Virus record (IMG/VR): IMGVR_UViG_3300032046_005540
Coordinates: 32,001 to 96,000 of that record
Length of the DNA stretch: 64,000 bases
Source: a virus
Reading direction: 5' to 3' (one strand)
A program made the translations under genes and the position numbers. Under the pieces are notes generated by a model, which saw nothing but the letters and a program-made list of their open reading frames with translations, did no database searches and was not told where the DNA came from. This document shows, piece by piece, positions 12,767 through 51,253 of this stretch (position 1 is the first letter of the stretch; each line of letters begins with the position of its first letter).

Positions 12767-13189
12767 TTAACTTTTTTCATCTTTTCTTACGATACGTCTT
12801 TCAAACTTTCCAAACCAATATAAAATAATAAAAGTTATAATACTTACAATTGTTGCTTCTACATAATAACCAAATCCTACCGCCATACCTACTATTCCAC
12901 ATATCCAAACACAAGCGGCAGTAGTAATCCCATGAACCGATCCTCTACTGTGTAAAATTACACCGGCCCCAATAAAACCTAACCCAGTTAATATATTACT
13001 TGCTATTTTTGTTACATCAGCACCATTACTACTAGCAAAACAAAAAGAAATATGAGCTGCAAGCATTGATCCTAAAACTATCAAAATATTAGTTCTTAAC
13101 CCAGCAGGCTTATGAAATAGTTCTCTTTCAAAACCAATCAAAGCCCCTAAAATAATTGCTATTAAAACTTTTAGAATAAAACTAAACAT
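12767..13189 (-). CDS. MgtC/SapB family membrane protein
   Basis: LGALIGFERE..KPAGLRT, GLGFIGAGVI, VHGITTAA..W. Confidence 0.92.
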   Translation of the reverse strand: MFSFILKVLIAIILGALIGFERELFHKPAGLRTNILIVLGSMLAAHISFCFASSNGADVTKIASNILTGLGFIGAGVILHSRGSVHGITTAACVWICGIVGMAVGFGYYVEATIVSIITFIILYWFGKFERRIVRKDEKS

Positions 13190-13191
13190 TA

Positions 13192-14112
13192 CTATTCCTC
13201 TGGATAAAAATCTTCAATCTTTTGCCCTTTATCTGTAACAACTTCAACATTAGATATATTTTCATATATCTTATAAATTAATTCATCAAAATACATAACA
13301 TTATCTATCAACCCAAACCATAAGGCATCAGTTGCATCATATGTTCTTCCGTCACTTATATTTTCTAAATAATTCATTACTTTTTTATCGTTTGGTTTAC
13401 TTTGATTATATATTTCTGTATATGCTTGAATTAATTTTTTCCCCCGGCAATCAAAAATATATTGAAGAAATTCACGATATAATTTATTTATCTGATTTTG
13501 TAAAATTTCTTTTTCTTCTTCTGTTAACTTACTATGAGAAAAAAACATTGTTTTATTTTTTCCTGACTTGATCAAAATATATTTCACTCCAGACATTGAA
13601 TCAGAAACTGTTTCATCAACTCTCAAAGTAAAAACACCTATAGATCCAGTTTCTCCCGAAGGAGCTACAACTATTTTATTAGCAGTACAAGCAACCCAAT
13701 ATGCTCCTGAATATAAACCCTTTTCAGAATAAACTAAAAGACTTTTATTATATTTTCTCATTAAAACACTTATTTTATGAGTAGTTAATTTAGTCTCTAT
13801 AACATCTCCTCCATTAGACTCCGTCCATGCAATAACTCCAACACAATCTGACTTTTTAAATTCTTTCTCAATTTTATTTGCCCAATCTAAACTAACATCT
13901 CCTTCTAATTTTAAAACAACAATTTTATTTTTTTCTAAAAAAGGATTATTTAATATTAAAGGGTTGGTTGTAGATTGTGTAACAGAAACATTAGAAGTAG
14001 AATTAGCTGTAAATTGACAAATGCCCCAAAAACCTACAAAAGAAACAAAAAATACAAATAATACAATTAAATATTTTTCATTATTCGTTTTCTGTATCTT
14101 CATCTTTGTCAT
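13192..14112 (-). CDS. S49 (SppA-like) peptidase with N-terminal TM
   Basis: ESNGG, SGAYW, TGSIGV, KSGKNK, DGR...A..GLID. Confidence 0.85.
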   Translation of the reverse strand: MTKMKIQKTNNEKYLIVLFVFFVSFVGFWGICQFTANSTSNVSVTQSTTNPLILNNPFLEKNKIVVLKLEGDVSLDWANKIEKEFKKSDCVGVIAWTESNGGDVIETKLTTHKISVLMRKYNKSLLVYSEKGLYSGAYWVACTANKIVVAPSGETGSIGVFTLRVDETVSDSMSGVKYILIKSGKNKTMFFSHSKLTEEEKEILQNQINKLYREFLQYIFDCRGKKLIQAYTEIYNQSKPNDKKVMNYLENISDGRTYDATDALWFGLIDNVMYFDELIYKIYENISNVEVVTDKGQKIEDFYPEE

Positions 14113-14959
14113 CTTCTTCTTCTCCTTCTACTTCTCTTTTTTCAAACAATTTTCGAGCGTCCTCTTTTTTCTTTTTTCTCATTTTTTCGCACTTTTCAGA
14201 AGTAAATTTTGGATCATATATAAATTGAAAACACTCTTTTTCAAGCCATCCATAAATACTATGTATTGGAATAAAATATCCCATATGAGTAATACTATCT
14301 CCCCATCCTATAACATTCATTCTGCTTGGAATTCCTATAAATAAATAGTCTTCTCCTTCTCCTTTTACTTCTTCCTCTTGCTTAATTAAAAATACTCCTC
14401 CCCCACTATTACCGTATATGATCAATCCGTTACTCATCCAATAAGGATGATTTTCCATTTCATCATCTTGAGATGTAATCTCTCCACGAGTGGGAATTGG
14501 AGAATGCCCAAGACTACAACCACACATATACACAGGATCAAAAATATGAATATTCTTTACATCATCTAAATATAATTTAGCAACATTTTTAACTTGTTCG
14601 TTTGATCTTAATTTTACTAAAGCAATATCTCTATCCCTATTATAAGTCATAATATCTGCTTCAATCGCAGTTCTTCCTACATTACGACTCATATTCTGAT
14701 ATTTATAAAATTCTACATTCACTGTTTTTCTTCTTTCTTTATCAATTCTTTTTGAAAGAAGAGGATCCCACTCTTTTTTAACAGATATTGCATCTTCAAT
14801 CACATGCCAGTTTGTTAAAATATATGTTTCATATTCTTCCGATCCCTTTTTTGTAGGCTTAGAATAAACAACAGTTCCACTTCCTCCCGCTTTATCAGTT
14901 TTAACGAGAGCAGAAACATATAAAATTTCTTCATGTTTCTTTTTTATATTATTGTTCAT
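14081..14959 (-). CDS. Trypsin-like (HtrA/S1-type) serine protease
   Basis: GSGTVV, LTNWHV, DIAL, GNSGGG; paralogue of 6499..7146. Confidence 0.88.
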   Translation of the reverse strand: MNNNIKKKHEEILYVSALVKTDKAGGSGTVVYSKPTKKGSEEYETYILTNWHVIEDAISVKKEWDPLLSKRIDKERRKTVNVEFYKYQNMSRNVGRTAIEADIMTYNRDRDIALVKLRSNEQVKNVAKLYLDDVKNIHIFDPVYMCGCSLGHSPIPTRGEITSQDDEMENHPYWMSNGLIIYGNSGGGVFLIKQEEEVKGEGEDYLFIGIPSRMNVIGWGDSITHMGYFIPIHSIYGWLEKECFQFIYDPKFTSEKCEKMRKKKKEDARKLFEKREVEGEEEDDKDEDTENE

Positions 14960-14970: not shown

Positions 14971-16335
14971 TTACTTTTCTAAAATTTCATTTGCTTGTTC
15001 AACTAAAGGTTTGTCAATGTCATAAATATAAGGATTTTTTGTTTCTGGAGCATCTTGTAAATTAAGATGATATCTCCAACTTAAACCTTTTCTTTCATGA
15101 ACTCCAGCAAAAATTTGTTTAGCATCAGAAGATAAAAATAATTTACCAATCGAATATTCATCTCCTCCAATAACACTTCCATTTAAAACAATTTCCCCTT
15201 TTATTTTATCTAAAGTTCCAGCATTATGAAAATGCCCTAAACAAACATAATCAACTTTTATTTTCCTTGAATAAAACAATTCTTGAAATCGTGAAACCAT
15301 TCTTTGAATCCCATACCATGGAATTCCCGCCCAAGAATGTATATTATCTCCATGTAAAAATAAAAATGTTTTCCCTGAAATTTCTTTTAAAGACCAAAAA
15401 CTTTTAGGTAAATTAAACTTAATATTTTTTTGATTTCTTAAAAGTAAACTTAACATTATATAAGTAACATAATCCCAATTTACATATCTATTTTTATAAC
15501 GAATTTCTTTAGTCATTCTCCCATGATTCCCTACAACCCCAACAAATTCAATTTCTGGAAATACTTGGGCTAATTCTAACATAAATTGAGCAACTACCAA
15601 AGCAGTTCCCGAAGTCCATTCTATAGGAGTATTTTCAGCAGTTTCAACCAGTTCTCCATGAATTAATCCAGTTACAAAATCTCCTAAACCTCCTATTACA
15701 AGTTTTGGAAACTCATATCCACGAAGCTTATTTTGAGATATATCCATAATAGATTCGGCTAAATATTTTAATCTATTTTTCATTATTTCAAAGTTATAAG
15801 AATTGAATCCTCCAGTTTCATCTGCACGAACTACTTCTCCACTATGCAAATCAGATAAAAGTAATAAAGCAGTTTCTTTCGTTCTTTCAACTTTAAAAGA
15901 TTTTAAGGTAGGAACTTTTACAGTAGGTAAAGCAGAAATAGTTTGATGTAAAACATTTAAAATACTTTCTTGAAGATTTGAAGTTTTATTAGCAACAATA
16001 TATTTTCTTTGAACAATTTCTAATTGTGTTTTTAATCTTTGAATTTCTCTATCTTTTGTAACAATAATATCAATTTTTTCTGGAGGAGTTTCAACAACTT
16101 CTTTTTCGATTATCTTTTGTAATTCTTCACGGGCTTCTTTTGACTTCTTAGATTCACAATTAGCATATGAAATACCTAAACGGCCTAATTTATTAGTGAG
16201 GGAAATTAAAGTTCTGTTGTTTCCAAATTTCTTATTTAAATCAGTAATAAAATCTAATGGATGAACTTTTTCACTAATTTTTTGCTTTGCAAAATTAACT
16301 TCTTCAGAGGTCCAATCAAATGACTTATTTATCAT
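14971..16335 (-). CDS. Calcineurin-like metallophosphoesterase with N-terminal HTH and coiled coil
   Basis: SDLH, GDF, GNHG, HGD, GHFH motifs. Confidence 0.85.
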   Translation of the reverse strand: MINKSFDWTSEEVNFAKQKISEKVHPLDFITDLNKKFGNNRTLISLTNKLGRLGISYANCESKKSKEAREELQKIIEKEVVETPPEKIDIIVTKDREIQRLKTQLEIVQRKYIVANKTSNLQESILNVLHQTISALPTVKVPTLKSFKVERTKETALLLLSDLHSGEVVRADETGGFNSYNFEIMKNRLKYLAESIMDISQNKLRGYEFPKLVIGGLGDFVTGLIHGELVETAENTPIEWTSGTALVVAQFMLELAQVFPEIEFVGVVGNHGRMTKEIRYKNRYVNWDYVTYIMLSLLLRNQKNIKFNLPKSFWSLKEISGKTFLFLHGDNIHSWAGIPWYGIQRMVSRFQELFYSRKIKVDYVCLGHFHNAGTLDKIKGEIVLNGSVIGGDEYSIGKLFLSSDAKQIFAGVHERKGLSWRYHLNLQDAPETKNPYIYDIDKPLVEQANEILEK

Positions 16336-16394: not shown

Positions 16395-19300
16395 CTAAAT
16401 TTGTTTTATCTCTCCCCCTTCTGCTCCATATGGAATACTAAAATCTGGAAAAATCAATTCTTTTGTAGGTTTATATTTTTTTAGTCTATTTGACTCGCCC
16501 CAAGGATCATCTTCAACTGTTCCTTCAATCTCAGCCTGAGCTGGTTCAGAAGGATAACCAGGCCCTTGATCTTCCCTCAAAAGCAATGAAGGGCTGTTAT
16601 AATTTTTTGTTGTAGGTTGACCTTCAAAACTTAATTTTGTTGTAGAACCCATAATTTCTTGAACTTTACCAAGAGGAAAATGTTCATCTTCAGGTGTATA
16701 TGCTTCTAATTCAGTTATAGTAGGATCTAAATCCAATGTAGTAATTAATTCAGGCACATAATACACAAAATTTCCAAGTTTTCCTGAATCTTTTAACCAC
16801 CCAATAAAATTTTTTCCGTAGTATCCCCTTTCAATATCATCAAACTTTTTTCCGGCAGATGGAAGATTAATTGTTTCAAACCACTGCACATGAGAATCCC
16901 AATCTACAGATTTTGCAGGAGGAGTTATATAAACCTTTCCTTCATATACAGCCCACAACCCACCTTCGTTTTCAAAAAATGCTTTCTTTCTTAAACTCAA
17001 CGAAGCTAAATCAATATGAGGATCTAAATTATGTTCTACGATTGAATCATTTTTATCATGTCTTGGAGGATTTGTTCTTCTTAATTTTTTATTATCTGTT
17101 TTATCTTGACTAACCCAATTTTCAGGAATTTCTGAAACATTATCAGTTAAAAATGAGATTTTTCTCATTGCTAACTTCGGTTCCCAAATAACATCTTCAT
17201 CATTATTCAAAATATACTTTATATTTTCTGGGGAAATAACTTCAGTAGAAATATACCAATCAGTCATTCCTTGCCATTCCATATATTTATTACCAAGATC
17301 TAATAATTGTTCTTTCGTTGGATTATCAATTCCTTGAGCTTCTGCTAATCCTTCCCCATACCACATAATTGTATCAGGAGCGTATTGATTTAAAAGTTCT
17401 GCAAAATTTTGTATTGTAGCACTACTTACAATAACATAAATTGAATCTGGAGAACCTTTTCCTCCATCGCTTCTATAAAGTTCCCTAGGTTCATACAAAG
17501 TAAACATTATAAAATGAGGATACCCAGGAATATTTTTAAAAAAAGGCCCTGGCTCTGTTACAAAAGAAGGATCAAGTCCTTTTTGTAAAATACTTTCTAA
17601 ATTCCTTTTTGAAGTTTCATGAGAAAATAATTTTTGTGAGGTTTTTCTCATACTTAATTTAGGAATCAAAACATCCTCTAATTCTTTTGTTTCTTCTTCA
17701 GTAACTTGATCATCTTTTATTATATGTTTAATCTTTCTCAAAATATCTAAATATCTATATCTTTCAATTAACTTAAAAAGAATATTCCCAGGAGTCCAAT
17801 TTTTGCTTAAACCTTTCTCAATTGGTTCTTGCCCGTCATAAAATGCTTTATTTCTTTCCTCATGTATTTGTTCATTTTCTTTTTGTAACTGCTTTAAACC
17901 TTGTTCAATATCTTCTAACTTTTTTTCTACCAACTTTTGAATATCCTCTTTATCTCCTTCATAAGAACTTACCAATTCTTTTAAAATATTATAATCAATT
18001 AAGTCTCTTTTAGTTTTACCTAACTCTTCATCCAGCTTTTTCATAATATTTTCAGCTTTATCTTGTAACAACTTAATTTTGTCACTAACATCCAAGTTTT
18101 CCGGCATTTTCTGTGGTGAAACGATCCACTTATCATTTAGTATATCATAAGCCTCTTCACCCTGTGTCAATACACTTTCTTTGGCTGACAATATATAATA
18201 TGTAAGAGGATGTGAGGTTCCTGGTAATTTTTCTTTATTTAAAGTGTTCCAAAACACTTTTAGCAGTTCTTTTTGCATTTCTTCGTTGTCATCCTTTGCT
18301 TTATTTAGATTGTTCTCTTTATAAATATCCCAATCTACTTCAACATGAATGTCAATATCAGAAGTCTTTAGGTATCTATAAGTTGCAGTTGATCCAGTAT
18401 AATAAAATCCTTTACACCAAAGTTCTGGATTATTTATTCCTACTTCTCTCAAATAATCAATAAACCTTTTTATAATAAGGGTTTTAACATCTTTTTTTAA
18501 TTTTGGAAGGTCTCCAGATAAATCCCACATTTCTGGATCTAAATGTTTTTGAGGGTAATCGAGAATAGATGCTTTTTTATTAAACAAATACTCAGTTTGA
18601 GAAAAAATAGTTTCAAACAATTTTTCAGCTTCTTCCTCCAAATTTGGATTAACCATATTCATAACTATATGAGGTTCTCCTGTTATAAAATGGTCATGTA
18701 TAAAACTAATGATATTATCAATAGATATCATAATATTTTCATCAGTAACTGCAAACTCTAATTCTCGTATATCATCTTCAACTATAATAATACTTTCTTC
18801 GACGTCTTTATCTTCTTCAATACCTTCATACTCTTTCTTCATGTGTTCTAACAGTTTTTGTAAATTCTCAATAAAATCATATTGAATTTCAACTAATAAA
18901 TCATGATCATAAACTCCAGGAGTTTTTAATTGTTGTTTATAAAGCTTGCGAATATTACCTATATTAATAAATGCTTTCTTCCTCAAACTCAACGAAGCTG
19001 TCATTGTTTGTTCAGAGGTAGGATTATCTCCCCAAAGCCAAGGATCTCTATTTATTTTTACTTTTCCAGGAAACTTAATATCAAACCCTTGATCCGGTTG
19101 TCTTTCAAGCCATTTATCTTTTCCTTGAAAATATACTTCTCCTTCAGGATGTTCTCCTTGTTGACCTTGAAGAGGTTCATTCGGAGTTGGTTCAGAAACA
19201 GTAGATGCTGGTTTTTTCATTCTTAAATTTAAACTTTCTATAGGTTCTTTTTCTCCAATACTTTCTATAGTATTATAAATTTCATCAAAATCTCCTTGAA

Positions 19301-22300
19301 ACCAACCAAAGCTATAAGTTAAATGCGCTTGATGAATAATTTGATCAATAGCAATTATTTTTTCAGGCAAAGACTTAGTAAGAACTATTTCCATTTCGTG
19401 TATAAAATCATTCATATCATCTTCATAGCCTTCTCTATACATTTTAGGTAGGTCTTCGGGTATATCAGGGTCATTCCAAATACGAATTTTCTCCTGTTCC
19501 ATACCGTATATCAACTTAGTAATGACGTTATCTACAAATTCGTCTGTTAATAAACCTTTTCTTTCTAATTTATAAAATCGTTTAAGTTCTTGAATAGATA
19601 ATTTGTTAGAATCAGAAATATCTTGTGCTATTTTTTCTTTTTTCTTTTTTCGAGGCCAAGAATGAGGATAATCTAAAGATTTAAGAATTGGATTAGGAAC
19701 CGAAAATAGTTTTCTTAAATAATTAAATGTTTTTGTAATTAAATTTGAAGTTTCTTTTTCTTTTTTCATAGCTAAAGTTGTAATACCTTGAGTATAATCT
19801 AACATTTGAACCATTGCATCTGGAGGAAAATTCAAAGCGTTTTTTAGTTCTTCTAAATGATCATAAAATTCATTATAATCCCCCATTCCATACCAAACTA
19901 TTCTTTTTTCTTCTGGTTTAAAATCTTTACTACCAAACGCATAATCATAAAAATATCCTCTAACTATATTATCAAATACTTCTCCAGCTGAAGGAAGACC
20001 AATTTCTTCAAACCAATTCGGATGTCTTTTTCCAGGACTATAAGTTATATAAACATTTCCTTTATATATTGCCCAAGAACTTTCATTAGAAATAGGTTCG
20101 TCATAAATAAATGTTTCTGCTTTCTTTCTTAAATTTAATGAACTGCTAATTTTTAAATTACTTAATTCATCAAGAAATGTAGACCCTTCAGAGATAGGCC
20201 CCCAAACATCTTTTTTAGCAGGGCCATATTCAAAGTAACCAGAAATAAGATGTTGTGCATAGACATCATACATATGAGATGTATGAATAACAGTATCTAT
20301 AGCAACCATCTTTTCCTGAGGAGTTTTCGCTTTTTCTAAAACTGAAATAAGTCCACGAGTAACCTGAGACCAATCTATACTCGTTAAACTATCCAATGGA
20401 TGTTTTTCTTCCCAATTAGCTAATTCCAAAAGATTTTGTATAAACTTCGAAATAATTTCATCCATTAATTCTTCATCGTAAATGCCTTTAGCTTCCTGCC
20501 TATACAACCTAAATAATTCTTGTTTAGTTGTTAGAGGTGTAGGAAAATCTTCTTCATCATTTTGAGCTGTTTTTCTTAACTGTAAACTACTTAATTTTAT
20601 TTCTTTTTCCCATCCATGAGGTAATCCTTCAATTTGATATTCATGTGTTTTAGCTTCTTCTAGACTTAACAATAAAGTACTTTGGCAAATATCACAATTA
20701 ACCATTATAATTTTTTCATCTCCAAATTCTTGAAAACCTATAAAAGTATATGTAGGAATTTTATTATGAATTTCTTTATATTTATATTCATGACTTTCAA
20801 TACCTGCTTTTTTTCTCAAATTTAAAGAAACTTTTTCAAATGGTATTAACTCTTCAAAATATGGATCTCTAACTGAAATTTCTGTATCAGGTTTTAATTT
20901 AAGGACACTTAATAGTTTTGGTAAATTATCACTAAACTCTTCAAATGTTCCTGTATCTTTATACCATATCAGCCAATTATTACCATACCAAATTCCTCGA
21001 GGAGCAGAATCAAACGCAGTTCCTCCTGTAGGTAATCCTATTTCTTCAAACCAAGTTTCATGATGTTTGTATTCTTTAGTTGTTTTATATATTTCGCCAT
21101 TATAAATTGCCCAAAGGCCATCAGCATTTGCTTTCTTTCTCATACCTAACACTAATGCATTAGGTTCTTTAGATTCTAAAATTCCTAAAATAATTTCTGA
21201 AAATCTTTCAATTTCCCAAGTGCTTAATTCCGGATAATGATTTAAAACATAATTATAAATATTTTCATAAATTTTTGGTAATTCTAAATTTTCTTTAAAA
21301 TGGTTCAATGTTCTATTAATAACTTCTGAATCTAAAGTTGCTTTTTTCTTCATACTTAACTTTGTTCCCATTCCTTCATAAGCTAAAATAGAATTTGCAA
21401 TATATTTTTGTAAATCTAACAAATTATTAATTCTATTAACATTATTTATGATTGTTTGTTTATCCTCTTCAGCAATTTGAGAATTTTCAACTCTATTTAA
21501 AACTATATTTTTTGCTTCTGTTAAATCTAAAGCTTTCCAAACATCTTGTGCAATATCTTCTAAAATAGATATAATAGGACCTTTGTATTTTTTTGGTTTT
21601 CCTCCAAACTTTAAAGATGTTAGCATACCAAAATCTTCTTTCAACTGATCTAAAATAGCAAGGGCAATAAAAACACTTCTATCCGAAAAAACTTTCAAAT
21701 CTTCTTCTAAATGTTTTGTCAAATCAAGTATAAATGGTTTTTCATTAAATAAATTTTCATAAATCTCTTCAGCATTATGTAAATGTTCAAATTGTTTTAC
21801 AAAATCCTTAATAAATATTTCTTCTTCAGGAGTTAAATTTTGTTGAGATTGTTTTCTCATACTTAATTTTTCAACTACTTTTTGTTTTTGAGTCAATTTA
21901 GGAGCTAATTTAAGTTTACCTTGTTCTTGTAAAAAATCAATTAGATTACTCCAAACTTCATCAACTTTTTTTGATTTTTCAAGCGTTAATCCTTCTTCAC
22001 TTGTTCTATCAAGATATTCGTCATAATCCATTTTTAAATGCCAAATTATTGGAAAATCGACATGCATCATATTTATAGTATTATCAATAACAATCATTTT
22101 TGAATTAATATCAAAAGCATTATTTAATTCTTCCCAACGTTGTTTCATTTCTTCAATAACTTGTAATTCTCCTTCTTCTTTTCGAATATTCTCAGGATCT
22201 ATACCTTCATACCATTCAAAATAATCTTCAAAAAAGAACATCAAATCTCGAATAATTCTATCTGTTAAATTATCTAATTTTCTTTCAGTTTGCTGAAACT

Positions 22301-25300
22301 GATTAAATTCTGCCTCAGTTAAAGTTCCTTCATTATATTTTTGTTCTAATTCTCTATATCGTAATTCAAGTTCATAAACTGTTTTTAATTCACTAGGAGT
22401 AATAACTGCTTCTTTTCTCATTACTAAAGTCTTACTCCCAAATGGTTTTTTCAATGTTCTAGGTTTTGTATATTCTTTCCAAACCTCATTAACTAATTGT
22501 TGCCAAAAAGGTTTTTCTTCTTTTTCTTCTATTTTCTCTTTAGGTTCTCCAAGAATAGTAGGAGTAGGAGCAAATGCTATTTCAGGTTCTTCTTCTGTAG
22601 GAATTTTTTCTTCTAACTCTTCTTCTTCAATTGTAAATTTAGGCTCTTCAACAGGAGTTGGAATTTCTTTAAGAACTTCTTTTGGCTCTTCTACTTTAAT
22701 AAGTTCTTTTTTAGGTTCTTCTATTTTTTCTTCAAGTTTTTCAACTGGAATTTCTTTTTTAATTTCTTTTTCTGGCTTTTTTATTTTCAACTCATCTTCT
22801 GCAAACGGAGCAGTAAATCCAGGTTTAAATACATTAACTAAATCGTCAGCAACATTAGTTACTTCTTTAATTTCAATATTATACAATCCTTCTTCAGCTT
22901 TTCCTTTTATAATCCCTTTACCTTTTAGAACACCTCCAGGACTTTTTCGAGTTGCACCAAAATATCTTGTAGTATCAAATTCAACTTCATCTCCAGGTTT
23001 AAATTCTGTTTGAGCAATTCTTTTTAAATTTAAACTGCTAACTTTTAAATTGCTTAATTCCTCAAAAAAAAGATCATTTGACTTTATATCTGTTATCAAA
23101 TACTCTCCATATACACCAAATTCATGAGCTGTGTTTATTACTCTATCTATTGCAATCATTTTCTCTTGAGGAGTTGTTGCTTGTTGTAATATCTGAAGCA
23201 TTTTCTTTTCATCATTTATTATATTGTGTATAATTTGTTCATCCTCTGCTCCCTTTGAAAGTTTCAAATCTTTTTCATCAAATTTAATTAACCCTTCTAT
23301 AGTATTTATAAAATCAACAATAATCTGATCCATTAATTCTTCATCATAAATACCTTTTGCTTCTTGTTTATAAAGTCTTTTTAGTTGTTGTTTAGTCGTT
23401 TGTGATTCAAATTGAGCAGATTTTTCAAACCTAAGTTTTAGTTGTTGGGGGATAATAAATTGCTCTTCTATATTCTTTCTTATAGTTTCTTTTAAACTTT
23501 TTCCATATATTAATTCAAAAGGTTTTTGAAAAGCTTTATATTTACCCTCTTGTTCTTCTTTTGATTTTTCTTTTTTAAATCTTAAATTTTCAATAAATTC
23601 AGGAGATGGAGAAAAAAGATCAGGCTGCAAAAGTTCTTCTTGTTCAATTATAACCTTCTTATGACCAATGCGTTTAGGATTAAGATAATCTACATAAAAC
23701 TCAACATTAGGGCCAAGTTCTAAAGCAACAACCAGAGCATCTAAATTATTATTATACTCCTCAATTGTTCCTGTATTCTTATACCAAAAAACCTGATTAT
23801 TATTTTCAAGACGGCCCCGCGTGATGCGGTCAAAATATACACCACTCATAGGCCATCCCAAATCTTGAAACCATCCAGCATGATCTTCTCGATCATTCCA
23901 GTTGACTACTACTTGTCCTTCATAAATAGCCCATAAAGCACGACCATTACGTTTTGTAGTTTCTTTTCTCATACTTAGTTTATTTGCTACTATACCTCTA
24001 CTAATTACTTCTTTAGCTTGTTCTACTTCTTCTACTGTTACATCTGTTTTCTTACCACTTGCTATATCCCAGATTTCATCTTCAGTGTATTTTTGGAGTA
24101 GAGCGGAAAATGGAACTTTAACCCAAGGAACTCCAATTTCTTCAAGTTTTAAATCTTTTACAAGATTTTCAACTGGTTCTTTATAAAAACTCCTATACCA
24201 TTCTCCCAAAGCTTCTCCTATTTTTTCAGATGCTAATTTTTCAGTAAATGTTCCTAATCCATATTCATCAGTAACATAAACTTTCCACTGCTCAATAAAA
24301 GAAGAAGGAAACCTTCTCATATTATCCAAAATCAAACCATTTACTAAATGTTCACTCACATCTACATTTGAGGCAATATTATATATAAAAAGTCTTATAT
24401 CTCCAAGATTAGTTATTTTGAATTTATTAAGTTTTTCTAAAATATATTCAACACTTTGTGCTTTCTTTCTCATATTTAACTTAGATGCAAATTCTTTCAA
24501 TTCTTTTAATCTTTTTTTAGCTTCATCCCTTACAAAATCTTCTTTATCTTTAACCAATTCAGTTAATGTCTCAAAAAGAGTATTTTTGTTTTTAGCAACT
24601 TCCCAACGAATTCCTGGATCTTCATCTTTTGCTAACTCCACTAAAGTTTCAGGAGGAGTTCTTGGATTACTTGCTAACCTACTTTTTTCAAGCCCAGTTA
24701 AATATTTTTCCGGAGCTTCTACAACTTCTTGACCTTTTAATTGTAAATCTTCAATTACAAACTTTTGAATATCAGAAGAAAGATAAGGTAGGAGTTGTTC
24801 AAGAGTAGTTCCTGCTTTTATTTCTAATACCTCAGCAATCCATTTTTTTGTTTCTGGAAAATCTTCTAATAATAAACCTGTATTATGTTGAATATCATTT
24901 ATATGATCAATTATAGTTATGAGTTGATTAGTATCAGAAGTATTGATAAGTTGAATTAAAGATTCAGTTATATGACCCCAAGGAAGAACCTTGCGTTTCA
25001 TCCATTTGTTCCATTTTCCCTCATTCCATATTCGACTAACTTGTTCAAGAGGCAAATTTTTCAATTCTCCAAGATTCTTTATATTAAATTCTTTTTTCCA
25101 TTTATTCCAATCTAATAAACAAACACTGACTCCTCTACACGCATATACCAACGCTTTATATATACTTTTTGTAATTAAAGGAGCATATTCTTCTTTTACT
25201 TGTTGAACAATCATATCTTTATATTGAGAAGCATAAGGATTTTGTTCTAAATATTGATCCGAAAGGAGACTAACACCATAAAAATCATAAAATAGTTGTT

Positions 25301-26186
25301 TGTCAAGTTGAGAAGTTTTACGCATACTTAAACTTCCAAATATTCCTGGTCCTTGAGGATGTGGTCCTGGAGAAGACTCATACTCCATAGGATTTGAATA
25401 ATTAGGATCTATATTTATTATATTTCCTTGTTCATCTGGGTAATTATAAAAAGGAAGACGTTGTCTTGGTTTTTTAGGACCTTTAGGCCATTCATCTGAT
25501 TTTCCAGGTTCATAAAAATTTTCTTGCATAGTTTCAGGTTCGGCTGTTTTACGAAAGTTTAAATTACTGCTAATTTTTAAATTACTTAATTCATCAAAAA
25601 AAGGATCATATCCAGGTTCTACTCCTTGTATTAAAATTTCTCCATATTTTCCATGACCATGCATAGTATTTATTACTTGATCTATTGCTATCATTTTTTC
25701 TTCAGGAGTTTTTGCTTGTTGTAATATATTAATAAAATTAGTAAAATCTTTAGTATAGGTTTTCATATACTGTGGAGGAGACATTCCTTGGAAAGTTTGT
25801 TCAAAAAATTGTTTATATTTTTCTAAAGTATCTAAAAATTTTGAAATAATCTCATCTTCTAATTCTTCATCATAAATACCTTTTGCTTCTTGAATATATA
25901 ATCTTTTTATTTCTTCTTTTGTAACTTGAGGAAGAGGAAAAGGATATTTCTGTTCAGATTTTTTCCTTAAACTCAAAGAAGCTATTTTTGGAATATAATT
26001 CAAAATAGATTCTTTCATTTCTTCTGGGGAAACAAAAAAAGTCCCTTTTAAATTATCCAAAATATGTTTTTTATAGAAATCATGGTGTGGATGATTTGTA
26101 GGCACTCCCTGTTCATTTAAAATTTCAGAAACGGAATTAGAGTCAGCAAAAAAATATCGAGGTTCACTTTCCAATCTTTTAATCAT
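16395..26186 (-). CDS. Giant 3263-aa multi-module (polyvalent) protein; candidate polyprotein
   Basis: Uninterrupted ORF; about 22 L[SN][ML]RKx[AS]-type linkers; NTase, ART-like, LRV and SH3 modules plus two repeated module families. Confidence 0.9.
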   Translation of the reverse strand: MIKRLESEPRYFFADSNSVSEILNEQGVPTNHPHHDFYKKHILDNLKGTFFVSPEEMKESILNYIPKIASLSLRKKSEQKYPFPLPQVTKEEIKRLYIQEAKGIYDEELEDEIISKFLDTLEKYKQFFEQTFQGMSPPQYMKTYTKDFTNFINILQQAKTPEEKMIAIDQVINTMHGHGKYGEILIQGVEPGYDPFFDELSNLKISSNLNFRKTAEPETMQENFYEPGKSDEWPKGPKKPRQRLPFYNYPDEQGNIINIDPNYSNPMEYESSPGPHPQGPGIFGSLSMRKTSQLDKQLFYDFYGVSLLSDQYLEQNPYASQYKDMIVQQVKEEYAPLITKSIYKALVYACRGVSVCLLDWNKWKKEFNIKNLGELKNLPLEQVSRIWNEGKWNKWMKRKVLPWGHITESLIQLINTSDTNQLITIIDHINDIQHNTGLLLEDFPETKKWIAEVLEIKAGTTLEQLLPYLSSDIQKFVIEDLQLKGQEVVEAPEKYLTGLEKSRLASNPRTPPETLVELAKDEDPGIRWEVAKNKNTLFETLTELVKDKEDFVRDEAKKRLKELKEFASKLNMRKKAQSVEYILEKLNKFKITNLGDIRLFIYNIASNVDVSEHLVNGLILDNMRRFPSSFIEQWKVYVTDEYGLGTFTEKLASEKIGEALGEWYRSFYKEPVENLVKDLKLEEIGVPWVKVPFSALLQKYTEDEIWDIASGKKTDVTVEEVEQAKEVISRGIVANKLSMRKETTKRNGRALWAIYEGQVVVNWNDREDHAGWFQDLGWPMSGVYFDRITRGRLENNNQVFWYKNTGTIEEYNNNLDALVVALELGPNVEFYVDYLNPKRIGHKKVIIEQEELLQPDLFSPSPEFIENLRFKKEKSKEEQEGKYKAFQKPFELIYGKSLKETIRKNIEEQFIIPQQLKLRFEKSAQFESQTTKQQLKRLYKQEAKGIYDEELMDQIIVDFINTIEGLIKFDEKDLKLSKGAEDEQIIHNIINDEKKMLQILQQATTPQEKMIAIDRVINTAHEFGVYGEYLITDIKSNDLFFEELSNLKVSSLNLKRIAQTEFKPGDEVEFDTTRYFGATRKSPGGVLKGKGIIKGKAEEGLYNIEIKEVTNVADDLVNVFKPGFTAPFAEDELKIKKPEKEIKKEIPVEKLEEKIEEPKKELIKVEEPKEVLKEIPTPVEEPKFTIEEEELEEKIPTEEEPEIAFAPTPTILGEPKEKIEEKEEKPFWQQLVNEVWKEYTKPRTLKKPFGSKTLVMRKEAVITPSELKTVYELELRYRELEQKYNEGTLTEAEFNQFQQTERKLDNLTDRIIRDLMFFFEDYFEWYEGIDPENIRKEEGELQVIEEMKQRWEELNNAFDINSKMIVIDNTINMMHVDFPIIWHLKMDYDEYLDRTSEEGLTLEKSKKVDEVWSNLIDFLQEQGKLKLAPKLTQKQKVVEKLSMRKQSQQNLTPEEEIFIKDFVKQFEHLHNAEEIYENLFNEKPFILDLTKHLEEDLKVFSDRSVFIALAILDQLKEDFGMLTSLKFGGKPKKYKGPIISILEDIAQDVWKALDLTEAKNIVLNRVENSQIAEEDKQTIINNVNRINNLLDLQKYIANSILAYEGMGTKLSMKKKATLDSEVINRTLNHFKENLELPKIYENIYNYVLNHYPELSTWEIERFSEIILGILESKEPNALVLGMRKKANADGLWAIYNGEIYKTTKEYKHHETWFEEIGLPTGGTAFDSAPRGIWYGNNWLIWYKDTGTFEEFSDNLPKLLSVLKLKPDTEISVRDPYFEELIPFEKVSLNLRKKAGIESHEYKYKEIHNKIPTYTFIGFQEFGDEKIIMVNCDICQSTLLLSLEEAKTHEYQIEGLPHGWEKEIKLSSLQLRKTAQNDEEDFPTPLTTKQELFRLYRQEAKGIYDEELMDEIISKFIQNLLELANWEEKHPLDSLTSIDWSQVTRGLISVLEKAKTPQEKMVAIDTVIHTSHMYDVYAQHLISGYFEYGPAKKDVWGPISEGSTFLDELSNLKISSSLNLRKKAETFIYDEPISNESSWAIYKGNVYITYSPGKRHPNWFEEIGLPSAGEVFDNIVRGYFYDYAFGSKDFKPEEKRIVWYGMGDYNEFYDHLEELKNALNFPPDAMVQMLDYTQGITTLAMKKEKETSNLITKTFNYLRKLFSVPNPILKSLDYPHSWPRKKKKEKIAQDISDSNKLSIQELKRFYKLERKGLLTDEFVDNVITKLIYGMEQEKIRIWNDPDIPEDLPKMYREGYEDDMNDFIHEMEIVLTKSLPEKIIAIDQIIHQAHLTYSFGWFQGDFDEIYNTIESIGEKEPIESLNLRMKKPASTVSEPTPNEPLQGQQGEHPEGEVYFQGKDKWLERQPDQGFDIKFPGKVKINRDPWLWGDNPTSEQTMTASLSLRKKAFINIGNIRKLYKQQLKTPGVYDHDLLVEIQYDFIENLQKLLEHMKKEYEGIEEDKDVEESIIIVEDDIRELEFAVTDENIMISIDNIISFIHDHFITGEPHIVMNMVNPNLEEEAEKLFETIFSQTEYLFNKKASILDYPQKHLDPEMWDLSGDLPKLKKDVKTLIIKRFIDYLREVGINNPELWCKGFYYTGSTATYRYLKTSDIDIHVEVDWDIYKENNLNKAKDDNEEMQKELLKVFWNTLNKEKLPGTSHPLTYYILSAKESVLTQGEEAYDILNDKWIVSPQKMPENLDVSDKIKLLQDKAENIMKKLDEELGKTKRDLIDYNILKELVSSYEGDKEDIQKLVEKKLEDIEQGLKQLQKENEQIHEERNKAFYDGQEPIEKGLSKNWTPGNILFKLIERYRYLDILRKIKHIIKDDQVTEEETKELEDVLIPKLSMRKTSQKLFSHETSKRNLESILQKGLDPSFVTEPGPFFKNIPGYPHFIMFTLYEPRELYRSDGGKGSPDSIYVIVSSATIQNFAELLNQYAPDTIMWYGEGLAEAQGIDNPTKEQLLDLGNKYMEWQGMTDWYISTEVISPENIKYILNNDEDVIWEPKLAMRKISFLTDNVSEIPENWVSQDKTDNKKLRRTNPPRHDKNDSIVEHNLDPHIDLASLSLRKKAFFENEGGLWAVYEGKVYITPPAKSVDWDSHVQWFETINLPSAGKKFDDIERGYYGKNFIGWLKDSGKLGNFVYYVPELITTLDLDPTITELEAYTPEDEHFPLGKVQEIMGSTTKLSFEGQPTTKNYNSPSLLLREDQGPGYPSEPAQAEIEGTVEDDPWGESNRLKKYKPTKELIFPDFSIPYGAEGGEIKQI

Positions 26187-27128: not shown

Positions 27129-27353
27129 TTAGAATCTAGGTATAAAAACAACATCTAAAAGTTCCACATCACTCATCATTGCAAGAAAAAAAGATCTAGT
27201 TCCATCCTTGCTAATGTCAAAAGCAAAAAAGAGACCTCGTTCTACGGAATAAGGTTCCACAGTCCTCAAACTAGTATCTCCTTTTTGAGTAGTATACATA
27301 AATCTAATCAAACGATGGCTTTCAATTCCAGTATAAATATCTTCAAGAGCCAT
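27129..27353 (-). CDS. Stand-alone WYL domain protein
   Basis: [22 protein letters not shown]; start placed at MALED after GGAG. Confidence 0.75.
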
Positions 27354-28248
27354 TTGCAAACTCCTCCAATTTATAAATAAGAACATCTCTCAAAAATTCA
27401 TCATAAAAATCAAAGTACCAAATACAAAAACATTCAACTCCAACACTTTTATATTCATTTATTATTCTTTCGTGGTGATCCCACCAAAGTTCTTTCGTAA
27501 TAATAGGATCATGAAAATATCCTCCTAAAACCTCAACAACTTTTTTAGTTTTCTTAAAAGGTTCAACAATAAAATCTGGATTTCTATTTTTATATTTACC
27601 ATTTTTAATAGGAATCCAAAATTTTCCGTTACCTACGTATTTTACATTCTTAGGAACTACCTTCATTACTTCTTGTTCAAGTTTACTAGGACCTATACTA
27701 GCTTTTTCTTTACCTTTTTTCATTTTTCTTAACTCTTCTTCAGAGGGTTTTCTACCTCTTAAAGCTTTACTAATTTTCTCTTTTGTATTATCAAAACAAG
27801 GATGTCCTTTTAAAGCATTACTTATTTTTCTTTTATGTTCTTCAGAAAGAGGCCCTCTTTTTTTACCTTTATTTGATTTACTTATTTTCTGTTTTGTTTC
27901 TTCAGAACGGTATGTTCCATAAAGAGGATTTTTTTCTCCTTTTTTTGATTCCCCTATTTTTCTTTTTGTTTCTTCAGAACGAGGTATTCCTTTTTTAGAT
28001 TCACTAATTCTTTTAACACCTTCACTAATTTCTTTTGTTAAATTTTTATTCCAAGCTTTTCTCCCTTTAAGAGACTCGCTAATAGTTCTTAACTTATATC
28101 CATTTCTTTTAATAATATTTCTAATAGTCACATCACTACAATTCCATTTTTTAGCTAAAACTATACTATTTAATTTCTCTTCAGAAAAATATTCCTTACA
28201 AATTTGTAATTCCTGCTCTTTTGTAAATATTTCCAAAGTTATCACCAA
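27343..28248 (-). mobile_element. Free-standing homing-type endonuclease (HTH + NUMOD3 repeats + PD-(D/E)xK)
   Basis: [18 protein letters not shown] repeats; NPDFI..VVEV.G.YFH. Confidence 0.8.
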
Positions 28249-31489: not shown

Positions 31490-31843
31490 TTATTTTTCTC
31501 CTTTTTCAAATTCTTCTGGGTAATTTTCTTGATATTCTTGCCACAATTTTTGCATTTCTTTAAAAAGACTGTTATAGTGTTTTCTCTTTATAGAAGCAAA
31601 CCTATAATTTATCCAACGATCAAAAACTTCTTGTAAAGTTGTTTTTCCTTTTACAAGATTCTTTATAGCAGTTTGAAACCATCCTTCACTTTCCCAGTCT
31701 TCTCCCAAAAGAGTTACTACTTCCCCATAATCATCTTCAATATCATCTTTATCATATTTAAAGGCTCTTTTCCTCATACTTAATCTTTGACTCGATGTTT
31801 TTCTAAATCTTTTATTTTGATCTTGCGGTATAATTAAAATCAT
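31490..31843 (-). CDS. Hypothetical protein carrying the LSMRKRA linker near its N-terminus
   Basis: RFRKTSSQRLSMRKRAF; SD AGGAGG. Confidence 0.7.
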   Translation of the reverse strand: MILIIPQDQNKRFRKTSSQRLSMRKRAFKYDKDDIEDDYGEVVTLLGEDWESEGWFQTAIKNLVKGKTTLQEVFDRWINYRFASIKRKHYNSLFKEMQKLWQEYQENYPEEFEKGEK

Positions 31844-33790: not shown

Positions 33791-36700
33791 TTATAAAGAA
33801 AGTTCTAATTGTTCTCCTTCTGCAAGAAGACTACTTATAGACTTAATGTAACTCCATAAATTTCTCCCTAGCTCTTTTATGGAATCAAACACATCTGCCT
33901 TTTTAATAGTTCCTTCTCTTTTTGGAAATACAGTTAAAAGTCTTTGTTTTACATCTTTATCTAACGACGCAGCTCCACGTTCAGCTTTTTCTAAATAAGC
34001 TCTAGCTTCTTCTCCAAATTTCTCTAAAAGTTTCTCAACTCTCCATTTATCATCAGGTTTAAATTTTTTAGTTTTCATAGATGTATCCAACCATACAAAA
34101 AACTCCCCTACGTCAACTAATTTTTTTTCTGACTCACTTAACAAAGTAGCCAATTTCTCAATCGCTTGGCTCATTTCTTCAGCTTCTTTAACTGATTTAT
34201 GTTCCTCTTGAACCTTTCTAATTTCTTCTTCTACTTTTTGTCGAGCAGAATTTACAATTGCTTTTATTTCACCTAATCTTTGTTCGTGATCCTTAATTTC
34301 GTGGAAAGTCTCTTGCATTTTTGGAGTTGCCACAACAGCCTCTTCTACTTCTAACTCTGGTTTGTGTGGTTTTGTTTTTAAGGTCTTATACTCTACTTTC
34401 GGTTTTTCTTCAGTTTCTTCTTCTTGAGCAAATCTCAACGATTTCTTTTTAGAATCATACTTTTCTAAATAATTTTCTGTATTTTCAACCGCAGGCAAAA
34501 CAACTTCTTCTAATTCTTCTGCATGTTCTGCTTCATCATCAGCCATATCTTTTAAAGCTTTTTCTGCTTTAGGAGAATCAACTTCTTTTGCCATTTGATC
34601 ATACTTCTCTTCGCCTTCTGTTTCGTCCTTAATATCTTCTTTAACATCTTTTTCAGTAAGAGCTGCTTTTCGAATTTTTTGAATTATTTCATTAACTGAT
34701 TTACCTTGAGATATTTTTCTTTTAGCAGTTTTTTCTAAATCAGCTAAAGAAAATACATTTAATCTTCCATCATCTAAAATAACATTATATCCAGTGCCTA
34801 CAGTTCCTGATCTAAATTCATAATTAGGAGTAATTTCAGAAACTATTCCAGATAACCCACCAAGAGTTCTTACTTGATCTCCTTCACTTATAATTTTTTC
34901 TGCTGTTTTCTTTGAAGACCTTTTTTCATATAATCTAACATTTTCATCGTAAAAAGCTCCCTCATGTCCATCATCAAATCTTACCATATATTTATTCTGA
35001 ATTCCAGTCCAATCTACATCAAAAATTTCTCCTATCTTACCATAATCAACATGATCTTCTTCTACTACTTTTACTATATCTCCTATACTATAAGCAGCTG
35101 CTGTTTTCTTTTTTGAAGCATGAACTACAGGATAATGTTGATTTTTAAGTTTCTTGTCAAGAATTTCTTCTAACTCTTTTCTAGTCATTCTTGAAACTTC
35201 TGACATTACTTTTGTTAAATCAAAATCTGGAGGAAACTGACCTGCTCTTGCATAATCATTTATTAAAGTTCTTAATCTTGAAATAGGAATTTGTTTTCCG
35301 GTTTCATCTGTTTCATGATATCCAGTAGGTTCTGCTGTTTTCTTTATTGAAGATTTCTTACCTTTCATATGTTTAAACATTTCTACTTGTTGTAATCTTT
35401 CTTCTGCTTTCTTTCTTGAAGGGTAACAACCCATACTTCTACCAGATTCTGCTATTACACAAAATTCATTTCCTCTTTCAACTATTTTTGCTTCTTTAAT
35501 TGAAGCTTCTTTTGTTTCTTCCTCTTCAAACTCTTCATCCTCATCTTCTTCAATTAATTCTATTTGATTACCATTTACATACCAACCTCTTCCTTGCTCA
35601 TCTCCAACCCAACCTCTTCTTCCATCCCACTGAGATAAAGTAAAAACTTCTCCTGGTTTATCTTCATAAGCAGGTTTTAATCGAACTTGATCTCCATTTT
35701 GAAACTCATAATCTATTCCATCAGCAGTCTTTACAGGCTTTACAGAAGTTCCACCTCTAAACATTTTTTGAATTGCTCTTTCTTCTTCTGGAAGAATTCC
35801 TTGATTTGATTTTTCATAAGGAACACTAAAATCAGCATCAACTTCAGTTTGTTTTGCAACACTATAATCAGGATCTGATTCAGTAAAAGGAAATAAAGTT
35901 TTTTCATCTCTTAAACTTCTTTTAATTAAATTTTTAACTTTTTCTGCAAGCGTTGTAGTAGGAATTGCAGGAACAGCACCTGGAGTAGTTACAACTCCTG
36001 GAGTAGCTTGAATATTTAGATCCATATTAGGAATTGGAGCAGTTTTAACTCCTGTTTCATCTGTTAATACAGAAGCATCTCCTATAGTAGAATCAATTGT
36101 ATATATTTTTCCTTGATATTCAATTTGCTGACCAGGAGTAGGAATACCAGCTGCTGTTTTCTTAGAAGCTAATGCTAATAAATCTAACCTTTCTAATTTA
36201 TCAATAGAATTTTGATAAGCATCAAAAGCTTCTTGACGATTCATTCCAAATTCTTGTTCTAAATTTTTTACCATTTCTTCTAAAGTATAACCTCTTCTTA
36301 CTCCTATTCTAACTACATTATCTACACTATTTAATTCTTCTGCTGTTTTTTTAGAAGCAACCACTTCTCTAAATCTTGTAAAATCTCTTTCCTTAAAATG
36401 AATTTCAGGAGCACTAATTTTAGGTTCTGTAGCAGTAAATAATTTACCTGATAAGAAATCTGCAACTGCTTCTTTTGTAAAAGGAATTTCCCTTCCGTCT
36501 AAAGTAGAAAAAGTTTCAGGCAATACAACTTTACCAGCAGGAGTAATTCCAGCAGTAGCTAAAACTCTAAATCTTAAATCAAGATTATCGACTGCTTCTA
36601 TAGAAAATTCTGCTTCCCGAATGTTTTGTGGTCCTCCTTCTTTTACGCTACTTCTTGTGATTCCTCGTTGAAATCGAAGCTGAGGATTAAAGAAACCAAA

Positions 36701-37159
36701 TTTTTGGCAATATTTACCTAACTCGTGACAAATTTTTTCTAAGAGGGCTCTGTCAACCCAACTTTGGGGCGTGTAATTTGGCGTCACCCCTTGGTTCGGA
36801 TACACAGCAATTAAATTGGCTGCCCTATTAATTTTTGAATTTTGTTTTGTAGAAATTTTAATCAGCCGATCCACAATAAGAACTTTTCCACACTTAGGGC
36901 AAGAAATATAAGAATCTCCCCCCCGAGCTGATTCTACAATTTGTTTTTGCAAAAGATCCGCACTAAAAGAACTATGGCACCCAGAACATACATAAGAATA
37001 TGGTACTTGTTTTACAGATGATTTTGCATATTTACTAATTAAATTTTTTGTCTTTTCTGACAAAGGGTCCTTCTTTGTAGCTTCCTTTTTTATTTTTCTC
37101 TTATCAATCCAATCAGGAAGCTTGTTTTTATTTCCACCTTGTTTTTTTGGGACTAACAT
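33791..37159 (-). CDS. About 1120-aa multi-module protein; candidate polyprotein
   Basis: Zn ribbon, several KOW/SH3 modules and a ferritin-like ExxH module separated by ASKKTA-type linkers; ATG at 37159 after AGGAGG. Confidence 0.85.
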   Translation of the reverse strand: MLVPKKQGGNKNKLPDWIDKRKIKKEATKKDPLSEKTKNLISKYAKSSVKQVPYSYVCSGCHSSFSADLLQKQIVESARGGDSYISCPKCGKVLIVDRLIKISTKQNSKINRAANLIAVYPNQGVTPNYTPQSWVDRALLEKICHELGKYCQKFGFFNPQLRFQRGITRSSVKEGGPQNIREAEFSIEAVDNLDLRFRVLATAGITPAGKVVLPETFSTLDGREIPFTKEAVADFLSGKLFTATEPKISAPEIHFKERDFTRFREVVASKKTAEELNSVDNVVRIGVRRGYTLEEMVKNLEQEFGMNRQEAFDAYQNSIDKLERLDLLALASKKTAAGIPTPGQQIEYQGKIYTIDSTIGDASVLTDETGVKTAPIPNMDLNIQATPGVVTTPGAVPAIPTTTLAEKVKNLIKRSLRDEKTLFPFTESDPDYSVAKQTEVDADFSVPYEKSNQGILPEEERAIQKMFRGGTSVKPVKTADGIDYEFQNGDQVRLKPAYEDKPGEVFTLSQWDGRRGWVGDEQGRGWYVNGNQIELIEEDEDEEFEEEETKEASIKEAKIVERGNEFCVIAESGRSMGCYPSRKKAEERLQQVEMFKHMKGKKSSIKKTAEPTGYHETDETGKQIPISRLRTLINDYARAGQFPPDFDLTKVMSEVSRMTRKELEEILDKKLKNQHYPVVHASKKKTAAAYSIGDIVKVVEEDHVDYGKIGEIFDVDWTGIQNKYMVRFDDGHEGAFYDENVRLYEKRSSKKTAEKIISEGDQVRTLGGLSGIVSEITPNYEFRSGTVGTGYNVILDDGRLNVFSLADLEKTAKRKISQGKSVNEIIQKIRKAALTEKDVKEDIKDETEGEEKYDQMAKEVDSPKAEKALKDMADDEAEHAEELEEVVLPAVENTENYLEKYDSKKKSLRFAQEEETEEKPKVEYKTLKTKPHKPELEVEEAVVATPKMQETFHEIKDHEQRLGEIKAIVNSARQKVEEEIRKVQEEHKSVKEAEEMSQAIEKLATLLSESEKKLVDVGEFFVWLDTSMKTKKFKPDDKWRVEKLLEKFGEEARAYLEKAERGAASLDKDVKQRLLTVFPKREGTIKKADVFDSIKELGRNLWSYIKSISSLLAEGEQLELSL

Positions 37160-37169
37160 TGGCAACCTC

Positions 37170-41977: not shown

Positions 41978-42107
41978 TATTTTCACTCTCTGAGCATTTT
42001 TTACAAATTTTTTTCCCATTTTTACCACTGTAAAGAACATTTGTTTTCTTTTTACAAATTTCACAAATTAAAGGAACAGATATTCCTTTTGCTTTCTTTT
42101 TTAGCAT
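41970..42107 (-). CDS. 45-aa Zn-finger protein (not in ORF track) starting MLKKKA
   Basis: SD AGGAGGT; CEIC...CKKC. Confidence 0.65.
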   Translation of the reverse strand: MLKKKAKGISVPLICEICKKKTNVLYSGKNGKKICKKCSESENNE

Positions 42108-51231: not shown

Positions 51232-51253
51232 ACTTATATTTACTCCTAAAAAA

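Follow-up and report, generated by a model that had tools for sequence, protein, structure and literature searches.

A 3263-residue phage protein whose modules are separated by a recurrent basic linker: a possible virion cargo polyprotein and substrate of the phage's own prohead protease

The window analysed here is a 64,000-nucleotide stretch (bases 32001-96000) of the single 168,267-bp contig of an uncultivated tailed phage (IMG/VR record IMGVR_UViG_3300032046_005540), which has 30% G+C and carries all of its genes on the minus strand. With a genome of 168 kb it is not a jumbo phage. The window encodes a terminase with an inserted endonuclease, a DNA polymerase, a UvsX-like recombinase and SbcCD-like nucleases, and the head module lies just outside it, at 5-22 kb of the genome. 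The giant open reading frame (ORF) of the window, P0001, encodes a chain along which a short basic linker motif recurs (Table 1). Cutting the protein at the motifs gave 22 segments comprising at least 12 unrelated module types, about 12 of the modules being unique.

A preliminary description of this DNA had reported the linker and listed 21 copies of it. All 21 motif peptides translated exactly at their left coordinates, and we found one additional linker, NLRFKKEK; among the listed copies, KLRFEKSA, LNLRMKKPA and LFNKKA are degenerate. The claim that the motif recurs beyond what composition would give was upheld by 1000 composition-preserving shuffles of the giant protein, in which the pattern L-x-[MLF]-[RK]-[KR], present 20 times in the real sequence, occurred on average 0.25 times (maximum 3), and the full 8-residue pattern was observed 19 times where the same shuffles predicted 0.004. 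Conservation does lie at the peptide level, as had been proposed, with linker codons varying between copies; at the position of the linker 'M', the 21 copies used ATG (10), TTA (6), TTG (2) and TTT (3). A profile pooled from 65 unique instances in 12 proteins of the phage clade gave the consensus [SK]-L-[SN]-[ML]-R-K-[KTE]-[AS]-Q. Counted from the central Lys (92%), L occupies position -4 in 100% of instances, N or S position -3 in 85%, M, L or F position -2 in 97%, and R or K position -1 in 97% (R alone 76%), followed by K, T or E at +1, A or S at +2 (80%) and Q at +3 (35%). No other basic pair of the linker is as strongly conserved as R-K. Homologues in other phages hold 11-14 motif copies each.

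The seven linkers that contain R-K-K (window 16980-25979) show a codon preference of their own. Their first Lys is encoded by AAG in five of seven cases, a codon that makes up 14% of the Lys codons of the gene, and this AAG interrupts runs of eight or more A (AGA AAG AAA instead of AGA AAA AAA), which suggests selection against slippery poly-A tracts within the giant ORF.

We compared the giant protein across four related phages: P0002 (from L009), P0003 (L012), P0009 and P0004 (both L008), and the present phage. The proposal that linkers mark module borders was borne out by homology blocks, by rearranged junctions and by an AlphaFold2 model. Of 51 BLAST blocks reaching the start of a segment, 43 projected to within 2 residues of the motif in the relative, whereas motif density alone predicts that a few percent of block starts would fall near a motif. 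At 20 of 21 junctions the neighbouring module differed in at least one relative, and the motif was kept across the four phages at module identities of 30-80%; position was fixed only for the first 69 and the last ~90 residues of the giant protein. In L008 (9985-10030) the polyprotein is encoded by two genes (1479 and 1873 aa) whose stop and start codons overlap, and the split falls exactly at the linker matching window 20805-20828, with the motif retained at the start of the second gene (MTLFMRKKAG). Homology blocks that end at linkers, a shuffled module order and a gene split at a linker thus agree with the earlier suggestion of a cassette array. The AlphaFold2 model covered one A-B module pair (32-row alignment, mean predicted local distance difference test score [pLDDT] 82), in which the A and B domains fold confidently. 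The three linkers modelled with them were coil with pLDDT below 50, about 60 (between an A helix and a B strand) and 49, so that 3/3 lay in low-confidence coil outside the folded domains; for the other linkers, homology-block borders served as a proxy for accessibility.

Table 1. The giant ORF, its linkers and modules, and associated genes. Coordinates are window positions except where marked as genome positions.
Feature	Coordinates	Strand	Remarks
Giant ORF (P0001)	16395..26186	(-)	3263 aa, open throughout; cuts at all linkers would give ~23 modules of 50-311 aa
N-terminal module, residues 1-69	25980..26186	(-)	first in all homologues
Linker SLSLRKKS	25956..25979	(-)	
Linker NLNFRKTA	25542..25565	(-)	
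Linker SLSMRKTS	25311..25334	(-)	
Linker KLNMRKKA	24459..24482	(-)	
Linker KLSMRKET	23958..23981	(-)	preceded by ~50-aa pre-linker module
Linker NLRFKKEK	23565..23588	(-)	
Degenerate linker KLRFEKSA	23415..23438	(-)	
Linker SLNLKRIA	23013..23036	(-)	
Linker TLVMRKEA	22407..22430	(-)	
Linker KLSMRKQS	21846..21869	(-)	
Linker KLSMKKKA	21339..21362	(-)	
Linker VLGMRKKA	21129..21152	(-)	
Linker SLNLRKKA	20805..20828	(-)	corresponds to gene split in L008
Linker SLQLRKTA	20565..20588	(-)	predicted coil, pLDDT <50
Family A module, folded example, residues 1876-2015	20142..20561	(-)	helical bundle
Linker SLNLRKKA	20118..20141	(-)	modelled between last A helix and first B strand
Family B module, folded example, residues 2025-2136	19779..20114	(-)	small alpha/beta domain
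Linker TLAMKKEK	19755..19778	(-)	
Degenerate linker LNLRMKKPA	19206..19232	(-)	
Linker SLSLRKKA	18972..18995	(-)	
Degenerate linker LFNKKA	18570..18587	(-)	precedes NTase-like module
NTase-like module, residues 2540-2842	17661..18569	(-)	weak call
Linker KLSMRKTS	17637..17660	(-)	
Module earlier called ART, residues 2851-3003	17178..17636	(-)	unique to present phage
Linker KLAMRKIS	17154..17177	(-)	
Linker SLSLRKKA	16980..17003	(-)	
C-terminal module, residues 3176-3263	16398..16661	(-)	last in homologues with known end
Mre11-like metallophosphoesterase/exonuclease	14971..16335	(-)	conserved downstream neighbour
Trypsin_2 (S1) serine protease	14081..14959	(-)	H52/D111/S185 triad; conserved neighbour
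117-aa protein beside terminase gene	31490..31843	(-)	two motifs in first 28 residues (FRKTS, RLSMRKRA)
1124-aa multi-module protein	33791..37165	(-)	second linker class [AS]S-x-KK[KT]A, 7 vs 0.27 expected
945-aa multi-module protein	38219..41056	(-)	second linker class [AS]S-x-KK[KT]A, 5 vs 0.18 expected
Major capsid protein	genome 5251-6240		adjoins protease-scaffold gene
Prohead protease-scaffold fusion	genome 6833-11167		1444 aa
Polyprotein B	genome 15322-18879		1185 aa; sits between portal and prohead protease
Portal	genome 18996-22196		1066 aa; appears interrupted

A scan of the genome with a position matrix built from the giant protein, for which the null was 1.25 hits per six-frame proteome, restricted the extended motif to five proteins, the giant protein and four others. 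Polyprotein B carries at least five copies, beginning with MKKLNMRKK and finishing with RLSMRKEGSRE, and both terminal copies are kept in its homologue P0014. A 518-aa tail-module protein, which begins MLYSLSFRKTSQ, has three copies; a 297-aa head-module protein has one, at residue 54; and the N-terminus of the 117-aa protein looks propeptide-like from its sequence. In the UvsX-like recombinase (window 53194-54249) hydrophobic-[RK]-K-x-[AS] was matched three times, with 0.24 matches expected, and one match falls at residue 4; these are probably chance, though it was the only non-structural protein to stand out.

The core of the linker, hydrophobic-x-K-x-A/S, also occurs in two proteins of head maturation. 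It was present in the capsid N-arm of 94 of 107 full-length homologues, as opposed to 15 when the arms were shuffled, and its density in the capsid protein was 3.8 per 100 residues within the N-arm and 0.13 elsewhere; the arm often holds two or three cores (for example, MRKQASSYPPGFEKTAPNAGFGVEKTADF). The present phage has GFRKEA in this arm and its closest relatives have GFSKKAP, a form that at the level of sequence bridges the two linker classes, that of the giant protein and the related one of the 1124- and 945-aa proteins. The nearest cultured capsid protein, gp27 of Bacillus phage G (40% identity), lacks the N-arm and is therefore uninformative on cleavage.

The prohead protease was recognised by a match to the PHROG head maturation protease and by the adjacent capsid gene, and its residues H106 and S186 are invariant. 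AlphaFold2 modelled residues 54-280 of the protease domain as a confident core (pLDDT 70-93) and residues 281-330 as disordered. In an exhaustive structural comparison the best PDB match of the core was T4 gp21 (5jbl_A; Z 8.2, root-mean-square deviation 2.7, 128 aa), followed by the proteases of varicella-zoster virus (Z 6.9) and then of human cytomegalovirus and Kaposi's sarcoma-associated herpesvirus; the fold was seen by this aligner only, Foldseek against PDB giving no match at E <=0.001 and a PDB sequence search with the domain giving nothing useful. The disordered stretch includes the motif L-E-K-[IV]-A-S, which follows the fold directly and was found in 27 of 27 homologues of the protease-scaffold protein, down to 29% whole-protein identity, and a further I-R-K-x-A near the C-terminus was retained in 23 of 25. 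An invariant motif in a tail predicted to be disordered, just past the fold, is what would be expected of an autocleavage site.

These observations are consistent with a model in which the giant gene encodes a virion cargo polyprotein whose linkers are reiterated recognition and cleavage signals for the phage's own prohead protease, a reading to which we give roughly even credence. In favour of cleavage sites, the 8-mer is conserved as a peptide and lies in predicted coil, and passive linkers are not normally so conserved; the free shuffling of modules among relatives further suggests that they act independently. In this model the whole chain would enter the prohead core, probably by way of the position-fixed terminal modules, which may supply the primary incorporation signal, and/or through linkers acting like the capsid-targeting sequences of T4. 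The enzyme reading the linkers would be the N-terminal domain, of T4-gp21/assemblin fold, of the 1444-aa protease-scaffold protein, and by analogy with the T4 site L/I-x-E the cut would be made at hydrophobic-x-K, probably just after the Lys (…L-S-M-R-K / K-A-Q…). About 23 pieces of 50-311 aa would be released, remain in the head and exit with the DNA, and the smaller motif-bearing relatives of the giant protein would likewise be head cargo. The preliminary description had suggested a processing or packaging site, and the core in the capsid N-arm and protease tail lends this support; packaging, the cleavage itself, the bond cut and ejection are steps that we infer.

Several observations weigh against the cargo polyprotein model. 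Cleavage products are so far not known for any protein of the phage, which is uncultivated, and the giant gene lies outside the head module, between the terminase and trypsin-like protease genes. Across the Lys-rich proteome the core was only mildly enriched (183 observed, 154 expected). The capsid and protease sites share the 5-residue core only and lack the linker's L at -4, S/N at -3 and R at -1, so a second reader of the linkers is possible. Known prohead proteases, moreover, mostly remove propeptides and do not dissect a chain of 3000 residues into functional parts. A complex prediction with the prohead protease domain, the trypsin-like protease and a 36-residue linker peptide reached 0.09 where the mark was 0.32, and counts neither way.

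A rival reader could be the S1 trypsin-like protease encoded two genes downstream, which might cut the linkers in the cytoplasm or after co-packaging, with Arg-Lys as a dibasic site. The order of giant gene, ~450-aa phosphoesterase and Trypsin_2 protease was kept in each of the three contigs in which the region downstream could be seen, the H/D/S triad of the protease is intact, and the basic pair that it would recognise is the most conserved one of the linker. Its homologues, found in at least 103 viral contigs, often adjoin large unknown proteins (commonly downstream of ones of ~1000 aa), and in one of these large proteins a 'large polyvalent protein associated domain' (LPD38) is present. 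However, among 34 loci selected because the contig continues on the upstream side of the protease gene, a motif-bearing protein stood there in the two closest only, although distant phages could use other sites. This protease would also leave the core motif in the capsid N-arm and prohead protease tail unexplained, and it has no acidic residue six positions before the catalytic Ser, in a family whose S1 pocket is unreadable from sequence alone. We consider it an unlikely reader. It is doubtful, too, but deserves somewhat more serious attention, that the motif is not cut at all and instead docks onto the scaffold core, portal, capsid interior or DNA, tethering an intact beads-on-string chain with avidity from its many copies. 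The motif is basic, the capsid N-arm is the usual site of scaffold contact in HK97-fold capsids, and cutting at those copies that stand at the extreme termini of separately translated proteins would free few residues. The invariant copy that follows the protease fold, and the threefold occurrence within the capsid N-arm, nevertheless suit processing better, and the free shuffling of modules argues for independent action. Docking and cutting are also not exclusive, as the T4 targeting sequence doubles as a cleavage site.

Two further explanations were far less probable. Cleavage by a host protease, for example of Prp type, was suggested by the K-L-N-L...A-S layout shared by the L27 and phage 80-alpha capsid substrates, the linker being laid out like the L27 motif MLxx(D/N)LQ(F/L)F'A(S/H)KK (PMC9405229). 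Where Prp substrates have two aromatic residues ahead of the cut, however, the linker has Lys, and we rejected this very improbable candidate on finding no PF04327 match in the phage, no Prp match in the Cloacimonetes-labelled bin that holds L009 (an incomplete bin, with host assignment unproven), and in that bin a short L27 (MAHKKGVG...). Least credible of all is that the motif is an artefact of composition, a relic of fused small genes or a series of internal translation starts. K, L and S abound in the protein, and ATG stands at the hydrophobic position of ten copies. Yet shuffling reproduced the motif 0.25 times where 20 copies exist, which excludes chance; conservation extends to residues on the upstream side of the 'M', and four phages retain the motif. 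TTA or TTT, codons unable to start translation, is used in nine of 21 copies, and on this codon usage internal starts are excluded as well. The R-K-K-A of the linker also resembles the MuA-type C-terminal ClpX tag (RRKKAI), a likeness to which we attach no weight.

The closest known counterpart of the proposed cargo polyprotein is the T4 gp21 system. In T4 the site of gp21 is L/I-x-E, cut after the Glu; the internal proteins begin with capsid-targeting sequences of 10-19 residues ending in a gp21 site, and Alt is trimmed by gp21 at both ends, losing seven residues from its N-terminus (PMC9026906). The present phage resembles this system in the fold of its protease, for which gp21 was the best structural match, and in a hydrophobic-x-charged motif common to the capsid protein, the protease and the internal cargo. 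Its terminal motif copies, odd-looking for cleavage sites, have an exact counterpart in the T4 targeting propeptides (7-19 residues) and the two-ended trimming of Alt. The sizes agree as well, T4 internal proteins being ~8-20 kDa and the predicted pieces mostly 6-25 kDa, the largest of 311 aa (~35 kDa). It differs in that the predicted specificity residue is Lys and not Glu, a single 3263-aa chain repeats the signal ~20 times where each T4 gene carries it once, the protease and a scaffold region of ~1150 aa form one fusion protein, and the cargo modules are shuffled as cassettes between relatives. Multiple cuts by one protease are also known from phiKZ gp175 and SPN3US gp245 (motif A/S/G-x-E), which process many head and ejection proteins as well as themselves at one motif; gp245 cuts at A-x-E in 14 sites of nine head proteins, itself included, and some substrates there are cut more than once (PMC10052503). 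Most of those cuts take off or break up the N-terminal propeptides of proteins encoded by separate genes, whereas in the present phage it is folded modules that the motif sets apart, in several giant genes.

Polyvalent proteins are the other relevant precedent (Iyer et al. 2017, PMC5512222). Like them, the giant protein is a very large multi-domain phage protein with a mosaic domain order, predicted to be packaged and delivered, and it holds many unrelated domains in one chain in a phage that has a terminase and a portal. Iyer et al. themselves liken polyvalent proteins to the polyproteins of RNA viruses and propose release by embedded peptidases; a conserved inter-domain motif or linker is not described (PMC5512222). 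In Pfam and PHROGs searches the giant protein, unlike polyvalent proteins, showed neither signature domains (zincin-like MPTase, MuF, ART, LPD) nor an embedded peptidase. Judged by its sequence it may work like a polyvalent protein, yet we do not file it as a member. A similar logic is found in the sites of flavivirus NS2B-NS3, in Kex2/furin pro-hormones and in alpha-factor precursors, where a short basic site with a small residue after it separates repeated units; the proteases and cell biology are unrelated, so the analogy is one of logic only.

Polyvalent phage proteins and motif-directed head maturation are thus already known. In the searchable literature we found no tailed-phage protein dissected by ~20 conserved linkers that match the capsid/protease maturation motif, and no Lys-specific site of gp21 type. 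If the linkers are cut, head processing by prohead proteases would extend to a cassette polyprotein, hitherto a hallmark of RNA viruses and peptide-hormone precursors, and the enzyme would bring Lys specificity into the gp21/assemblin family, in which the phage members known so far cut after Glu. We put forward only tentatively, as a possibility that falls short of probable, a true polyprotein strategy in which one gene loads about 23 small independent proteins into the capsid, each flanked by an address-and-cut signal that the prohead protease reads and that makes the cassettes swappable, and in which polyprotein B, the 518-aa protein and the two KKTA-linker proteins would bring the total to more than 50 cargo modules per genome. 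Gain, loss, duplication and exchange of cassettes between phages would then require no new packaging signal to evolve. The 8-residue motif would tag the injected cargo of an uncultivated phage clade and, like the capsid-targeting sequence of T4 before it, might be turned into a portable tag for packaging and release, and the cargo modules, mostly without known fold, would form a pool of putative host-takeover or anti-defence proteins.

Two module families are repeated in the giant protein. Besides its folded example, family A has five further copies (approximately residues 78-207, 925-1050, 1261-1439, 2146-2319 and 2407-2532), giving six, and family B has three (approximately residues 745-866, 1688-1786 and 3071-3175), giving four. 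Foldseek found no PDB match to the A+B model at E <=0.001, and the exhaustive aligner returned only generic four-helix-bundle (Z ~6) and weak ADF-H and Stay-Green (Z 5.3-5.6) matches, from which no function follows. The 'effector' label of the preliminary description is therefore unproven, these two families having no recognisable fold or function. The family is rare: out of 1.84 billion representatives, an A-B query matched only 23 proteins. Other metagenomic proteins have A or B as a stand-alone domain, without the linker. In two of these matches, the phage-like proteins P0018 and P0020, an N-terminal family A domain precedes a region with an S-adenosylmethionine-methyltransferase-like glycine motif, as read from the alignment. 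Such contexts suggest that family A may be an adaptor or targeting domain rather than an enzyme.

Other modules were harder to assign. Pfam found only sub-threshold NTP_transf_2 and LRV matches in the giant protein, PHROGs found none, and against cultured phages megablast gave no match and tblastn matched only the NTase-like part, at 27% identity, to phage genes of which one is annotated as an aminoglycoside nucleotidyltransferase. The earlier NTase call thus survives in weak form, with an NTP_transf_2 match (E 0.0016, 19.2 bits) below the Pfam cut-off of 21 and nothing useful in a PDB sequence search; in P0004 the orthologous module is preceded by a full linker, TLAMKKET. For the earlier ART call we found no support: residues 2851-3003 gave no Pfam match at E <=0.1, a PDB sequence search returned nothing better than E 0.18 and no ART among the matches, and a language-model search offered a DarT/PARP-tagged cluster at rank 30 only, a weak lead. 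The N-terminal module also heads the small proteins P0012 and P0015 and is a candidate incorporation domain. A pre-linker module of ~50 residues (…KY-x-x-DEIWDI-x-SGKKTDV…RGI[VI]AN; window 23982-24130) stands directly upstream of a linker once in the giant protein and occurs three times in polyprotein B, including its extreme C-terminus; it may be part of an extended signal.

Downstream of the giant gene, the PDB sequence search with the Trypsin_2 protease gave nothing useful, and no signal peptide was seen in the protein (14081-14959). It has a paralogue at window 6499-7146, and near the end of the longer of the two a basic stretch, KMRKKKKED, gives way to a strongly acidic tail; one Trypsin_2 homologue in another contig adjoins a tail protein J homologue. 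An S49 (SppA-like) peptidase is followed by an MgtC-family gene (window 12767-14112). PHROGs tags this peptidase as a 'head maturation protease', the real prohead protease being encoded elsewhere. As a processing enzyme the S49 peptidase (13192-14112) was rejected, having an N-terminal hydrophobic stretch that resembles a membrane anchor and being missing from the neighbourhood of one relative.

Homing-endonuclease genes are dense in the window (27343-28248, 28242-31478, 32949-33776, 37170-38207 and 41069-42064), the endonuclease-like insert resides in a terminase of 1078 aa, and the L008 relative has an intein in a terminase-region gene. The head module also contains a sigma factor gene. A tRNA-Leu(TAA) gene is located at window 51253-51338, and TTA is by far the most used Leu codon of the giant ORF (164 of 314).

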